In this document: piece by piece, positions 4,177 through 8,607 of the stretch
Layout: the number at the start of each line of letters is the position of its first letter
Position numbering within the stretch: position 1 is the first letter of the stretch
DNA from: Candidatus Fraserbacteria bacterium
GTDB lineage: Bacteria > Bipolaricaulota > Bipolaricaulia > RBG-16-55-9 > JAJCYT01
Direction of reading: 5' to 3'
DNA length: 64,000 bases
Assembly: GCA_029262795.1 (NCBI GenBank)
Contig: JAJCYT010000035.1
Location: 4,202 to 68,201 of the forward strand
Position numbers and translations under genes: made by a program
Notes under the pieces: generated by a model
What the model saw: only the letters and a program-made list of their open reading frames with translations
The model's database searches: none
What the model was told of the DNA's origin: nothing

Positions 4177-6549
4177 TTGAACTGGCTTGGCTATGCGGTA
4201 ATTGGTTTTTTATTGGTTGTAACCGCGGGATGGGTGGGCATTGTAGAGTTACCAAAACCTCAAACGCATGGTTCGCTTCAATTACAGGGACTCGTTGATG
4301 AAGTTGATATCATCCGTGATCAATGGGGGATTCCACATATTTTTGCCAACAATGAATCTGATCTGTTTTTTGCCCAGGGATTTGTCACTGCACAAGATCG
4401 CTTGTGGCAACTGGAATTGAGTCGTCGGCTGGGGGCTGGCACGCTCTCAGAAGTGTTTGGCGAACTGGCATTGGATACAGACAAAGCCATCCGCACCCTG
4501 GGCTTAAATCGCGTTGCACAAGCGTCTGTTGCTGCGCTTTCGCAAAGCAACCAAACCCGATTGCAAGCCTATATCAATGGCATCAATGCGTGGATCGACA
4601 AGAAAAACTTCCCCCTTGAATTCATGATTTTGGGCTTCAAACCAGACCACTGGAAAGCGGAGGATGTGTTTCATGTCACAGGCGGCATGGCCATGACTTT
4701 GCAGGATGCCTACACCACCATCATCCAGCGCGCTCGTGCTCAGATCTCTTTGACACCAGACCAATTTTCGGAAATCAATACACACTATGACACCACAGGA
4801 TCATTTGGTGTGAATGCCTCGTGGGGTGGGATGGTGATTGCTAAATCACAAACTTCGAAGCAATTGGCGAGTGTCAATTTATCATCGACAACGCTGGAAA
4901 ATTTAAACCAGTTTTCTCAATCTTTAGATAGCCTGGCACATTTTCTGCCTTTGGGGGAGGGGATTGGTAGCAATGCTTGGGCGGTGCATGGGGCGCTGAC
5001 TGACACCGGCATGCCTTATTTGGCAAACGATCCGCACTTGCCCAATCGCCAGCCAGCCACATGGTACGAAGTTCATCTCAACGCACCAGGTTGGCATGTC
5101 ACCGGCGCTAGCTTGCCAGGGTTGCCTGGGGTGGTGATCGGCCACAATGATCATATTGCTTGGGGTGTGACCAATGGCTATTTGGCAATTCAGGATCTTT
5201 TTATTGAACAATTCGATCTGAGCGATGCCTACAGTTATAAATTTCAAAGTGAGTGGCTGTCGGCTGAAGTGGTCCAAGAAGAGATTGATATCAAAGGGCA
5301 GGATGAACCTGTAATTCACGAAGTGATCATCACCCATCACGGCCCCGTTATTACAGATTTACTCAAAAGTGAAGAAGTCATTTCTTTGGGGTGGACCTTT
5401 ATTGATCCTCAGGGCAGCGATCAATTGGCTGGGCTGTTGGGGATCAATCAGGCTACGGATTGGGAATCATTTCGAGCAGGGGTGGCCCAGGTGCCGTTTG
5501 ACCTTAATTTTGTCTATGCAGATGTGGCTGGTAACATTGGCTATCAACTGTCCGGTCGTTTGCCTCAACGAATATCCACATACACCGGGTTGCCGGTTCA
5601 GGGTTGGAGTGGCAAACATGAATGGACTGGTATTCATTCGATCAACGACCTGCCCCACACCTTTAATCCAGGTTCAGGGTTTGTGGCAACAGCCAATCAT
5701 CGGCCCTTCGGTCCAGATCTAGTCGATGACATACCTGGCGAATGGGCGGCACCCTTCCGTGCTGAACGGATCACTTCACTGTTGAAAGCCCAAGCTCAAT
5801 TCAACTTTGATGATATGATGATTTTCCAAGCCGATACCTACAATGCGCCTCTTTATTGGCTGGCAGAAAAAATGACGTCTATTGAATCCCAGGATAAAAT
5901 TCATGCCCGCGTGCTGGATCTGATCAAAAGCTGGAAGGGTGTTGTGCAGGAAGATGATCAAGCATCCGTTGTGCTTGATTCAATGGTTCGAAATTTAGTT
6001 GCAAAAATGTTTGGAAGTAGGTTGGGGCCGGACTCAAATTTCTTAGGTTTTCAGGGCAGTGTCTATTGGCTGATGGCACTGGCTGAGGCTGACCCAAATG
6101 CTGTTTGGTTTGATGACCCTTCTACGCAAGGCACAGAAAATTTTGGTGATTTGCTATTGACCGCCTTTCATCAAACGGTTGAAATGTTCAAGGAGACTGC
6201 GGGTCCTGTCGAGCAATGGACCTGGGGGCGTTTAAAAGCAGTTACATTTTCTCACCCTTTGGGAAGCGCACCCCTGATTGGAGATTTGTTTGATCGCACC
6301 ACACCCACAGCCGGTGGACGGTTTACAGTTAATCGGGACAACACATCCTACCGGATGGTGGTTGATTTGGCGGATATGGCAAATGCCGTTAGTGGATTAA
6401 CCACAGGACAGTCAGGGCATCCTTTTTCTGCACACTATTCAGATCAGCTTGAACACTGGCGTATGGTGAAATTTCATCCTATGTTGTGGCACGATGCTTC
6501 TATCGAGAAAAACCTGGAGGCAAGATTAACGCTTCGCCCCATGAACTAG
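4177..6549 (+). CDS. Penicillin acylase family Ntn-hydrolase (AHL-acylase-like)
   Basis: RDQWGIPHI, QDRLWQ, GSNAWAV (nucleophile Ser), ANDPHL, GQSGHPFSAHYSDQ; SD caggagg before TTG. Confidence 0.92.
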   Translation: MNWLGYAVIGFLLVVTAGWVGIVELPKPQTHGSLQLQGLVDEVDIIRDQWGIPHIFANNESDLFFAQGFVTAQDRLWQLELSRRLGAGTLSEVFGELALDTDKAIRTLGLNRVAQASVAALSQSNQTRLQAYINGINAWIDKKNFPLEFMILGFKPDHWKAEDVFHVTGGMAMTLQDAYTTIIQRARAQISLTPDQFSEINTHYDTTGSFGVNASWGGMVIAKSQTSKQLASVNLSSTTLENLNQFSQSLDSLAHFLPLGEGIGSNAWAVHGALTDTGMPYLANDPHLPNRQPATWYEVHLNAPGWHVTGASLPGLPGVVIGHNDHIAWGVTNGYLAIQDLFIEQFDLSDAYSYKFQSEWLSAEVVQEEIDIKGQDEPVIHEVIITHHGPVITDLLKSEEVISLGWTFIDPQGSDQLAGLLGINQATDWESFRAGVAQVPFDLNFVYADVAGNIGYQLSGRLPQRISTYTGLPVQGWSGKHEWTGIHSINDLPHTFNPGSGFVATANHRPFGPDLVDDIPGEWAAPFRAERITSLLKAQAQFNFDDMMIFQADTYNAPLYWLAEKMTSIESQDKIHARVLDLIKSWKGVVQEDDQASVVLDSMVRNLVAKMFGSRLGPDSNFLGFQGSVYWLMALAEADPNAVWFDDPSTQGTENFGDLLLTAFHQTVEMFKETAGPVEQWTWGRLKAVTFSHPLGSAPLIGDLFDRTTPTAGGRFTVNRDNTSYRMVVDLADMANAVSGLTTGQSGHPFSAHYSDQLEHWRMVKFHPMLWHDASIEKNLEARLTLRPMN

Positions 6550-7037
6550 CTGCGCATGTTGATAAACTGTAGAGGTACTTCCAAGTCTTGCTCTTTAAGA
6601 AAGGCAATAACCTCTTGAAGGTCGTCAATTTTCTTGGCGGTAACACGCAGTTCTTCACCTTGAATGGCTGTTTGAACTTTCATTTTGGTGTCTTTGACCA
6701 GCTTGACAATTTTTTGGGCGATCTCTTTTTCAATGCCTTCCTGAATATCTACTTCACGCTTAAGGGCACCGCCAGAGGTGGGTTCGGGGTCTTTGAATTT
6801 AAAGGTTTTGCCATTGATCTTCTGTCGCACGGCGTTGGCAATAAAAATTTCGCGCATGGCTTCAATTTTCAGTTTGTCAGCACCTAGAAAGCTAATCTTG
6901 TTTCCCTGGCGATCCAGTGTGATTTCATTGTGTGTGCCACGAAAATCATAGCGTTGAGAAATTTCACGCGCGGCATTGTTCACCGCATTGTCTACATCCT
7001 GCATGTCGATCCGGTTGACGATATCAAAAGAGGGCAT
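6546..7037 (-). CDS. yajQ: YajQ family nucleotide-binding protein
   Basis: MPSFDIV, QRYDFRG, IQGEELRVTAKKIDDLQEVI, PLQFINMR; 163 aa. Confidence 0.95.
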   Translation of the reverse strand: MPSFDIVNRIDMQDVDNAVNNAAREISQRYDFRGTHNEITLDRQGNKISFLGADKLKIEAMREIFIANAVRQKINGKTFKFKDPEPTSGGALKREVDIQEGIEKEIAQKIVKLVKDTKMKVQTAIQGEELRVTAKKIDDLQEVIAFLKEQDLEVPLQFINMRS

Positions 7038-7282
7038 AGTGTTTTCCTTCTATTAAAGTTTTCATTAGCTTAAACTCCAATATACCCAATTTCAAAAGAA
7101 TTATAAATGATCTTTTTGGAGATTTAGGCAAAAAACTTTGGAATGGTCTAAATTTCATTGGTTTTGGCCAAATGTAGCGAAGCCAAGATTCTTTGTGTGT
7201 TTGCGGTGATTTGGGTCACGTCCATTTAAATCCAATTATCTTATAAAAAGATTCAGATAACATGAAAAACATATTCACCCTA

Positions 7283-7311
7283 TTGCAAGCACTCAAAAAG
7301 TGTGTTAGGCT
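7283..7311 (+). promoter_or_regulatory. Sigma70-like promoter for the structured RNA
   Basis: TTGCAA-17 bp-TAGGCT with extended TG. Confidence 0.5.
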
Positions 7312-7327
7312 TTTAGGTGTAGAGGCG

Positions 7328-7392
7328 TTGAGCACCTTCAAGCTCAATACCGAAACGTGAGAAAAGCTTTGAACCTTCAAACAAAGTTTTTC
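7328..7392 (+). ncRNA. Twin hairpins with ACCUUCAA-containing loops, 5' of the c-di-GMP aptamer
   Basis: ttgagc-accttcaa-gctcaa (7328-7347) and gaaaagctttg-aaccttcaaa-caaagtttttc (7361-7392). Confidence 0.55.
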
Positions 7393-7406
7393 ATCGCTCC
7401 TAAAAG

Positions 7407-7520
7407 AACGGATGCACCTACAACGGCAAACCATGCGAAAGCATGGGACGCAAAATTAACGGCCTAACAGGTTGATCGCTCCTTCCTCATGGCGGCAGAA
7501 TCGCTAGGTGCAAGTTCGTT
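7407..7520 (+). ncRNA. Cyclic di-GMP-I (GEMM-I) riboswitch aptamer
   Basis: GGCAAACC-atgc-GAAA-gcat-GGGACGCAAA...GGCCTAA...ATGGCGGC consensus; closing helix tgcaccta (7413-7420)/taggtgca (7505-7512); G at the Vc2 G20-equivalent position. Confidence 0.85.
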
Positions 7521-7603
7521 TACTCAATTCTCAAAACCAAACCCCGACTTTGGTCCCTCCTCTTCAAAAGCTTCAATGATGATACAAAGGCAGATTTACA
7601 AAT

Positions 7604-7626
7604 ACTTAAAGGTCAAACCTTTAAGT
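7604..7626. terminator. Hairpin, possible 3' end of the RNA
   Basis: acttaaaggt-caa-acctttaagt; no strong U-tract. Confidence 0.4.
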
Positions 7627-7640
7627 CGCAAAAATTCAGT

Positions 7641-7668
7641 TTGACCTCATACAATCTGAGAGTAAAAT
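7641..7668 (+). promoter_or_regulatory. Promoter for a probably leaderless sulfotransferase mRNA
   Basis: TTGACC-16 bp-TAAAAT, ATG 6 nt after the -10 box, no SD. Confidence 0.55.
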
Positions 7669-7674
7669 TTCCAC

Positions 7675-8607
7675 ATGAACCCATCATTACCACAGGTGAC
7701 TCGTGTGTATCAGAATCACCATTTGGACAGCTTGCGTTGGAATGCCTTTACGCCGAGGGAAGATGACATCATTATTGCAACGTCTTATAAGTCAGGCACC
7801 ACCTGGATGCAGACAATTGTGTTGAACCTGATCTTTGCGGACAAAGCTGCGCCAAACATTCTGGGAACTTCGCGTTGGCTTGACAGTCGGGCCAACCCCA
7901 TTGCAGAAACCATAAAGCTTTTTGAAGCACAACAACATCGTCGAGCCATTAAAACGCATCTGCCATTAGACGGGTTACCCTTTTTTCCAGATCTTAAATA
8001 CATCGTGGTGGGGCGTGATGGGCGGGATGTGTTCATGTCGCTGTGGAATCATTACAAAAACTATACGCCCGAAGGCTATGCCAGATTCAATGATGCACCC
8101 AATCGAGTGGGGGGGCCGGTGCCGCAATGCCCTGATGACATCCGCATTTTTTATCACAATTGGATCGATCGAGGTTGGTTCGATTGGGACAGTGAAGGTT
8201 ATCCCTTTTGGTCCAACTTTCGCCATACACAAACATGGTGGAATTTTCGCCATTTGCCCAACATCCTGTTTGTTCATTTCAACGATTTGCTTAAAGATCT
8301 AAACAGTGAAGTCAAACGAATCGCAAACTTTTTAGAGATTTCAGTGACAGGCGCTCAGTTGGCCGATGTGGTTGAGGCTGCGACCTTCAAAACTATGAAG
8401 CGGAATGCCGACCAAATCTATCCGGATGCCGCCACAAGCCTTCAGGGTGGGGCGCAAACCTTCATCAACGAAGGCACAAACCGCCGATGGGAAAGTTTTT
8501 TGGGAGAAGAGGAAATACAATTGTACGAAGATGCAGTGGCTCGAGAACTGACGCTTGAATGTGCTTTATGGTTGGAATTTGGGCGTTGGCAGGATCAACG
8601 TGGCTAA
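7675..8607 (+). CDS. PAPS-dependent sulfotransferase (Sulfotransfer_1, SULT-like)
   Basis: 5'-PSB TSYKSGTTW, KTHLP, 3'-PB RDGRDVFMS. Confidence 0.92.
   Translation: MNPSLPQVTRVYQNHHLDSLRWNAFTPREDDIIIATSYKSGTTWMQTIVLNLIFADKAAPNILGTSRWLDSRANPIAETIKLFEAQQHRRAIKTHLPLDGLPFFPDLKYIVVGRDGRDVFMSLWNHYKNYTPEGYARFNDAPNRVGGPVPQCPDDIRIFYHNWIDRGWFDWDSEGYPFWSNFRHTQTWWNFRHLPNILFVHFNDLLKDLNSEVKRIANFLEISVTGAQLADVVEAATFKTMKRNADQIYPDAATSLQGGAQTFINEGTNRRWESFLGEEEIQLYEDAVARELTLECALWLEFGRWQDQRG

Follow-up and report, generated by a model that had tools for sequence, protein, structure and literature searches.

Riboswitch aptamers are almost always interpreted as cis switches of the next gene. To our knowledge, very few second-messenger aptamers reside within RNAs of independent function (merRNA and the Vc2-ended small RNAs [sRNAs] are the examples), and the mechanism has been worked out for none of them. 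Here we describe a candidate for this group in a 64,000-nucleotide (nt) stretch of DNA (the window) from contig JAJCYT010000035.1 of a Candidatus Fraserbacteria bacterium. It consists of a cyclic di-GMP (c-di-GMP)-I aptamer of the GEMM-I type embedded in a larger, conserved block of predicted RNA structure that lies on the plus strand, immediately 5′ of a sulfotransferase gene. The original prediction, made from the letters of the window, had read this block as a stand-alone, ligand-switched sRNA, and every element that it listed is in the sequence where it had been placed.

In Vibrio cholerae, c-di-GMP-bound Vc2 stabilizes sRNAs that lie upstream of it, according to the available text of bioRxiv 10.1101/617340. 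The RNA described here is like these Vc2-ended sRNAs in having an untranslated RNA body 5′ of a GEMM-I aptamer, and the same text proposes that the ligand affects RNA stability rather than termination (Pursley & Waters, bioRxiv 10.1101/617340). The Vc2 riboswitch is also an off-switch for the downstream gene tfoY, as far as that source goes, whereas no link to a downstream gene is evident at our locus. Unlike the Vc2-ended sRNAs as they are described there, the RNA here has a body of conserved twin hairpins and a conserved 90-nt tail after the aptamer, and it is known from sequence alone. The merRNA of Bdellovibrio bacteriovorus, in the accessible account of it, is 445 nt long, carries a c-di-GMP riboswitch within it, and is proposed to be a store or sponge for c-di-GMP (Karunker et al. 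2013, PMC3627812). The present RNA resembles merRNA, so described, in being noncoding and several hundred nucleotides long, in having no conserved open reading frame (ORF) under its control, and in its narrow lineage (PMC3627812). The two differ in that merRNA was defined by its massive expression and the RNA here by its sequence, and in that the phyla are different (PMC3627812).

The composite RNA at this locus, with its twin identical-loop hairpins, its aptamer locked by a long P1 helix, and its conserved tail, is not in Rfam. It would belong, as a variant, to the rare class of riboswitch-containing sRNAs, a concept for which merRNA and the Vc2-ended sRNAs are precedents.

Conservation and predicted structure of the RNA

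The locus was compared with L026, a metagenome contig that encodes a sulfotransferase 81% identical to that of the window, that matches the locus in gene order (amidase, yajQ, spacer, sulfotransferase, MFS, and MscS), and that carries an aptamer at the equivalent place. At third codon positions the flanking genes are 51% and 54% identical between the two sequences, so neutral sites are close to saturation; ~375 nt of the spacer are under strong constraint (Table 1). On this comparison, the constrained stretch far exceeds the 94-nt aptamer. Conservation begins abruptly at ~7225, where a 58-nt A/T-rich block could be an UP element or a binding site for a regulator. A third, partial variant (7425 to 7564) is present in a contig of sequencing run X5, and its tail changes are common with L026; contigs from four DNA runs yielded only this partial variant and paralogue fragments. 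Three small ORFs overlap the RNA, at 7263 to 7361 (plus strand, 32 codons), 7489 to 7644 (plus strand), and 7216 to 7434 (minus strand). All three are interrupted by stop codons in L026, so we rejected a small protein as the product and regard the block as noncoding.

Table 1. Features of the locus and identity to L026, in window coordinates
Feature	Position	Strand	Details
YajQ-family (DUF520) c-di-GMP-binding protein gene	6546-7037	-	PF04461, E 6.8e-58; NF003819, 197 bits vs cut-off 146
Segment of the spacer	7061-7224		45% identity
Conserved A/T-rich block 5′ of the -35	7225-7282	+	88% identity (51/58 columns)
Promoter segment	7283-7316		79% identity
Putative promoter P1	-35 TTGCAA 7283-7288; -10 TAGGCT 7306-7311	+	17-nt spacer; extended -10 (TGT)
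Twin-hairpin domain	7317-7414		89% identity
5′ purine-rich leader UGUAGAGG	7318-7325	+	Predicted pairing with CCUCU..CA at 7559-7566 closes the RNA
Hairpin H1	7327-7333/7342-7348; loop ACCUUCAA 7334-7341	+	dG -8.5; 2/200 shuffles as good
Hairpin H2	7357-7371/7382-7397; loop AACCUUCAAA 7372-7381	+	dG -11.0; 2/200 shuffles as good
Long P1 helix	7407-7420 with 7505-7520	+	14 pairs (RNAalifold); encloses the aptamer
c-di-GMP-I (GEMM-I) aptamer	7415-7508	+	RF01051, 54.3 bits; 93/94 columns identical (segment, 99% identity)
Conserved 3′ tail	7509-7600	+	86% identity (83/96 columns); C-rich, G-poor
Hairpin H3	7536-7541/7549-7554	+	RNAalifold; in tail
Tail tract UCCCUCCUCUU	7554-7564	+	Kept in L026
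Tail element CUUCAAUGAUGA	7571-7582	+	
Tail element AAAGGCAGA	7586-7594	+	
Segment containing H4	7601-7640		40% identity
Hairpin H4	7604-7626	+	10 bp, loop of 3; dG -10; 0/200 shuffles fold as well; no U tract
Segment containing promoter P2	7641-7674		65% identity
Putative leaderless promoter P2	-35 TTGACC 7641-7646; -10 TAAAAT 7663-7668; ATG 7675	+	16-nt spacer; 6 nt between -10 and ATG
Sulfotransferase gene	7675-8607	+	310 aa; PF00685, E 2.7e-42

The aptamer itself is an unremarkable member of RF01051. The match covers the full model (1 to 87 of 87) with an E value of 7.5e-08 and a score well above the gathering score of 35, bearing out the GEMM-I assignment of the original prediction, and the L026 orthologue scores 55.1 bits. 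A permissive scan of 7150 to 7720 gave no credible match to any other Rfam family, and ARAGORN found no tRNA-like gene at the locus. With the c-di-GMP-I family (type example, Vc2 of V. cholerae) it shares the GAAA tetraloop hairpin (CCAUGC-GAAA-GCAUGG, followed by GGCCUAAC ... CAUGGC in the cmscan alignment, with receptor-like CCUAA and AUGG elements), the ACGCAAA junction, and the consensus ligand-contact G, A, and C; in the second aptamer helix, cmscan marked four pairs as noncanonical. The consensus G, A, and C stand at model positions 11, 38, and 83, which by an offset of +9 would correspond to G20, A47, and C92 of Vc2, and the A47 equivalent is one that we take to be a ligand-contact nucleotide. 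G20 and C92 of Vc2 contact the ligand and A20 marks a cGAMP variant, according to the available text of PMC11705072 and PMC6140456. The presence of a G20 rather than an A20 equivalent would indicate, from the alignment, selectivity for c-di-GMP rather than cGAMP.

Unlike a typical GEMM-I element, this one has a P1 helix of 14 pairs and a C/U-rich insertion in its distal loop (gctccttcct, at 7478 to 7487), no terminator or Shine-Dalgarno (SD)-sequestering platform is predicted after it, and the next gene looks leaderless. Helix P1 contains an 8-nt perfect inverted repeat, and its flank duplex (−18.9 kcal/mol) is the strongest among the 15 GEMM-I aptamers of the host genome (G000), the next being −12.5. 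Adding the best aptamer loci from 27 further genomes of the order, one per genome, placed it second of 42 (range, −5.7 to −19.6). A P1 helix this stable should fold without ligand, unlike that of a switch based on competition for P1.

Upstream of the aptamer, the two hairpins H1 and H2 carry the same 8-mer, ACCTTCAA, in their loops (at 7334 and 7373), and both ACCUUCAA loops are invariant in L026. A repeated 8-mer in ~500 nt is by itself not beyond chance (we found three such direct repeats), and it is their conservation that lifts the twin hairpins above it. RNAalifold placed H1 at 7327 to 7332 and 7343 to 7348; in L026 its basal G·U pair is replaced by G-C and the loop-closing C-G pair is lost, so that the loop grows to 10 nt. 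H2 differs from its L026 counterpart by two double changes (G-C to A-U and A-U to U-A) and by a G·U-to-A-U change. Across the two-sequence alignment, all seven substituted helix columns keep a standard pair (two double and three one-sided changes), 138 of 138 cells are paired, and all indels and remaining substitutions lie in unpaired columns. The original prediction had located the twin hairpins and their common loop motif correctly, and it had named lack of conservation of these hairpins, together with a single transcript reading into the sulfotransferase and no start at 7675, as the mark of an ordinary riboswitch; the domain turned out to be conserved.

The RNAalifold consensus and the minimum-free-energy fold of L026 both contain a closing helix in which AGAGG (7321 to 7325) pairs with CCUCU (7559 to 7563). 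Because all its pairs are invariant, the helix offers no covariation test; a C-to-A change alongside it in L026 adds one A-U pair (AGAGGA/UCCUCU). The CCUCU lies in the tail within the tract tccctcctcttcaa (7554 to 7567), of which L026 keeps UCCCUCCUCUU, the CAA that follows being displaced by an AA insertion. This tract and the one in the distal loop are the C/U-rich tracts that had been picked out originally. Between 7509 and 7603, C outnumbers G by 25 to 12. A direct repeat, TT(C/G)ATCGCTCCT, occurs at 7390 to 7401 (after H2) and at 7472 to 7483 (in the aptamer distal loop); its core, TCGCTCCT, is kept in L026 and makes up, with the tail tract UCCCUCCUCUU, three CUCC tracts able to pair with the 5′ AGAGG. 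Two inverted repeats (7262 to 7270 with 7386 to 7394 and 7303 to 7315 with 7457 to 7469), which would call for transcription to begin farther upstream, were rejected as structural elements, being lost in L026 or lying inside the untranscribed promoter.

Transcription signals and the sulfotransferase gene

The sulfotransferase gene very probably has a leaderless promoter of its own, as the original prediction proposed. Promoter P2 agrees with the sigma-70 consensus in 10 of its 12 positions, no SD precedes the ATG in the window or in L026, and an in-frame TAA at 7663 to 7665, within the −10 box, bars an earlier start codon. L026 has TTGATC-16-TAAAAT-6-ATG there, its spacer agreeing at only 6 of 16 positions, and the retention of hexamers and spacing while the spacer diverged points to a promoter footprint. 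With this geometry, transcription would begin at the first letter of the ATG. We compared it with a crude gene set for G000 (2,811 starts, from long ORFs each assumed to begin at its first ATG), in which TAnnnT stands exactly at −12 in 100 starts, against ~30 at each offset from −8 to −11. Requiring in addition that four or more of the six −35 positions match left 37, against 4 to 7 at neighboring offsets. The sulfotransferase is one of these 37 leaderless-type starts, 36 of which lack an SD, whereas about half of all crude starts have an SD-like motif. G000 contains a distinct class of leaderless-type genes; offsets −13 and −15 were also raised.

The RNA, for its part, is preceded by promoter P1, which had been predicted at 7283 to 7311 and whose hexamers are kept in L026 (TTGCCA and TAGGCT), the changes falling mostly in the first half of the spacer. 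The −10 box of one more leaderless candidate in G000 likewise reads TAGGCT. The predicted transcription start is at ~7317 to 7319. For the other end of the RNA, the final hairpin of the original prediction (H4) does exist, is stable for so short a hairpin, and folds better than any of its shuffles, but it lacks a U tract and its sequence has diverged from that of L026, so its role, as a 3′ end or in protection, is uncertain and the 3′ end and size of ~300 nt are things we can only infer. At the equivalent place L026 has a different hairpin followed by U7, just 5′ of the −35 of promoter P2 (dG −8.6), which we count in favor of a stand-alone RNA.

Both the promoter and the RNA lie in a 637-nt spacer (7038 to 7674) between a yajQ-family gene on the minus strand and the sulfotransferase gene on the plus strand. 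From the ORF layout, the latter is monocistronic and convergent with the MFS gene. With the window protein as the query, a search for homologues elsewhere in the phylum returned one weak match among 183 genomes. Only two other proteins are 81% identical to it, one of them (P0003) on a 44.8-kb contig, and the next-best matches (≤63%) include metagenome-assembled genomes (MAGs) labeled Chloroflexota or Anaerolineales. The gene looks horizontally acquired. Upstream of homologues from other phyla with 47 to 55% identity, no Rfam match was found at five genome and three metagenome loci.

Ways in which c-di-GMP might act

Among the 14 other aptamers of G000, a hairpin-plus-T scan found 12 with a terminator-like site that begins within 75 nt of the aptamer end; for the window aptamer it found none within 400 nt. 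Constraint folds in which either strand of helix P1 was blocked left the helices beyond the aptamer as they were, both in the window and in L026, and no SD-sequestering element was predicted at the locus. The locus therefore does not look like a conventional cis riboswitch, since no terminator or SD helix competes with P1 and the downstream ORF has its own predicted promoter and no SD. To this extent the scans and folds agree with the original statement that the aptamer has no obvious cis target. Since helix P1 should hold without ligand and nothing is predicted to compete with it, to terminate transcription, or to sequester an SD, c-di-GMP would most likely change what becomes of the RNA itself or how active it is.

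Our best explanation, which we hold tentatively, is a structured RNA of ~290 to 310 nt, transcribed from the locus on its own and carrying a locked c-di-GMP aptamer, beside an autonomous sulfotransferase gene. Transcription would begin at the sigma-70-type promoter P1, and the short purine-rich 5′ end would pair with the CCUCU tract of the tail, closing the molecule. Inside this closure, two hairpins with the same ACCUUCAA loop would be displayed, the unusually long and stable P1 would hold the c-di-GMP-I aptamer, and the small hairpin H3 would come next, followed by the conserved single-stranded tail and a variable terminal hairpin. A separate promoter would drive the sulfotransferase gene, giving a leaderless mRNA. 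Ligand supply is suggested by nine GGDEF matches in G000, seven of them above the cut-off. Binding of c-di-GMP could alter the compaction and stability of the RNA, as in the Vc2-ended sRNAs of V. cholerae, or could leave the conserved loops and tail more or less exposed, and the RNA could also buffer c-di-GMP, as was proposed for the Bdellovibrio merRNA. What we infer is where the two transcripts start, where the RNA ends, that it binds the ligand, and any downstream action; trans action, protein sponging, and ligand gating of the RNA are conjecture. The stand-alone reading of the original prediction is supported in part, by the larger conserved block, the twin hairpins, the leaderless neighbor, and the lack of a predicted platform, but not by its final hairpin, which diverged in L026, nor by its targets, which were not distinctive.

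A more specific version, which we think unlikely as it stands, is that this is a lineage-specific trans-acting RNA of an uncultured Bipolaricaulota-like bacterium, with a permanently folded aptamer as its sensor. Ligand would reorganize a multihelix junction, in which the 5′ AGAGG may pair with any of three alternative CUCC tracts, and would so expose or hide the twin loops and the tail for a protein or for mRNAs. If this were true, the RNA would be a second-messenger-gated riboregulator rather than a gene-proximal switch.

Searches for targets and relatives of the RNA were made on several levels. Like RsaE and RNAIII of Staphylococcus aureus, the RNA repeats identical motifs in hairpin loops and has pyrimidine-rich tracts that could pair with purine-rich ribosome-binding sites. 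Unlike the UCCC loops of those RNAs, however, the loops here read ACCUUCAA and contain no UCCC. At SD positions in G000, UUGAAGGU was not specially enriched among NNNAAGGU words (10 matches, against 13 for the top word and a median of 4). Neither the C-rich-loop analogy nor the target prediction for UUGAAGGU-type sites that had been suggested with it was sustained. CTTCAA is a common hexamer in G000 (5,558 copies, and 54 clusters of CTTCAA/TTGAAG), so motif counts carry no signal, and a 7-bp match of the tail to codons 3 to 5 of the sulfotransferase, noticed by eye, was dismissed as being at about the level of chance. The phylum is represented in the genome collection searched by a single class with 184 species. 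BLAST of 7240 to 7700 against 41 genomes recovered only the aptamer core of one other riboswitch, and the pattern CACCTTCAA-N20-45-GAACCTTCAAA occurred in 1 of the 184 genomes, G000 itself. A covariance model of the twin hairpins (R1), run over 151 genomes, found G000 and two weak matches. One of these, in G001 (26.8 bits), was rejected, as it falls within an ORF, in DNA of 70% G+C, and has no GEMM-I nearby; the other, in G109 (23 bits), lacks H2.

A number of these and other observations weigh against an independent RNA. The block sits on the same strand as the sulfotransferase gene and 166 nt 5′ of it, the position of an ordinary riboswitch, and neither the RNA nor the gene turned up in the other genomes searched, a pattern that would also fit a functional cis pair. 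The −10 of promoter P1 matches the consensus at only three of six positions, and the promoter scan made no call there. After the RNA, the terminator scan found no intrinsic terminator in the window, and with H4 lacking a U tract, transcription from promoter P1 may continue into the sulfotransferase gene; the hairpin and U7 of L026 are themselves weak (6 of 200 shuffles were as good) and drew no call from the terminator scan. The comparison is based on two full sequences, those of the window and L026, and one partial sequence. With two sequences the covariation shuffle control is powerless, 132 of 500 shuffles reaching the observed values, so the helix-preserving changes are suggestive and not proof; the covariation check originally proposed for the twin hairpins thus gave two compensatory changes in H2 but an uninformative control. 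Loop-complement and CTTCAA/TTGAAG motif searches in G000 brought out no trans targets or partners, Hfq was not found in this genome (92% complete), and of the seven sequencing runs that contain the locus, none is on record as RNA.

Several of the same observations raise the main rival, a real possibility that we nonetheless doubt: an unconventional effect in cis, in which transcription from promoter P1 reads through and c-di-GMP alters Rho-dependent termination in the tail or the access of an RNase, setting the occlusion of promoter P2 or the amount of a leadered mRNA. Rho-dependent riboswitches are an established class, G000 encodes Rho (its nearest named homologues, 66 to 74% identical, are from MAGs labeled Candidatus Bipolaricaulota, Bipolaricaulia, or Acetothermia), and the tail has the C-over-G bias given above. 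The RNA is also immediately 5′ of the ATG on the same strand with no intrinsic terminator in between, and RNA and gene co-occur in G000 and L026, with neither in the other genomes searched. Yet a leadered transcript would present an internal ATG without an SD in a genome where about half of the crude starts carry an SD-like motif, no P1-dependent structure is predicted to hide or expose the tail, and P1 is too stable for ligand dependence. In L026, moreover, a hairpin and U7 stand ahead of promoter P2, and the tail is kept in sequence, beyond mere composition. It is improbable that the block is an ordinary riboswitch leader, with promoter P1 the sole real promoter, the P2 match fortuitous, and a platform missed by the folding programs. 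Such a platform would have its end in the 40 nt just 5′ of promoter P2, which are unconserved; the scans and folds gave neither a terminator nor an alternative helix, and neither genome has an SD before the ATG; P2 itself has the geometry of a populated leaderless class, kept in L026 across a neutral spacer. What speaks for a leader is that nearly all described GEMM-I aptamers are elements of 5′ untranslated regions, that Rfam types RF01051 as Cis-reg, and that other aptamers of G000 are 145 to 383 nt from the next ORF.

It is very improbable, in our view, that the conserved flanks are instead DNA-level sites, such as palindromic operators for promoter P1, promoter P2, or yajQ, with the aptamer alone acting as RNA. 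H1 and H2 are inverted repeats in DNA too, TTTGAACCTTCAAA is a near-perfect palindrome, and the conserved block at 7225 to 7282 lies upstream of promoter P1, all of which speak for operators. The changes in H2, however, are compensatory and at outer stem positions, as RNA pairing predicts and unlike the conservation of half-sites, and on the transcribed side conservation runs unbroken through the linkers and the tail.

Genomic setting and significance

The host genome is 4.05 Mb in 43 contigs, about twice the size usual in its phylum, where most others in the collection searched are 1 to 2.5 Mb and the largest are ~3.7 Mb. Of its 15 c-di-GMP-I matches, 14 are above the cut-off, and in the order as a whole 33 of 35 genomes have GEMM-I aptamers, the maximum being 17 matches (in G004, ~2.1 Mb). 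Many GEMM-I loci of the order have an AAGGA-type SD and an ATG within ~10 nt 3′ of the aptamer. Outside the window, G000 contains two tandem GEMM-I pairs (G000:C34:94553-94698 and G000:C38:11079-11420), one with adjacent aptamers and the other with aptamers ~130 nt apart and repeated terminator-like hairpins between and after them. The locus described here places two c-di-GMP receptors back to back, the RNA aptamer and the divergently encoded YajQ-family protein; no GEMM-I was found near yajQ at the yajQ loci of the relatives G001, G002, and G007.

In the literature searched, no paper paired “Bipolaricaulota” with “riboswitch.” What makes the RNA unusual is a combination of three features: flanks as conserved as the aptamer, a locked P1 helix, and a next gene that seems transcriptionally autonomous. 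If confirmed, it would provide a compact, sequence-defined model for the gating of RNA stability or trans activity by c-di-GMP, and it would point to elaborate c-di-GMP riboswitch signaling in a deep-branching, uncultured phylum.

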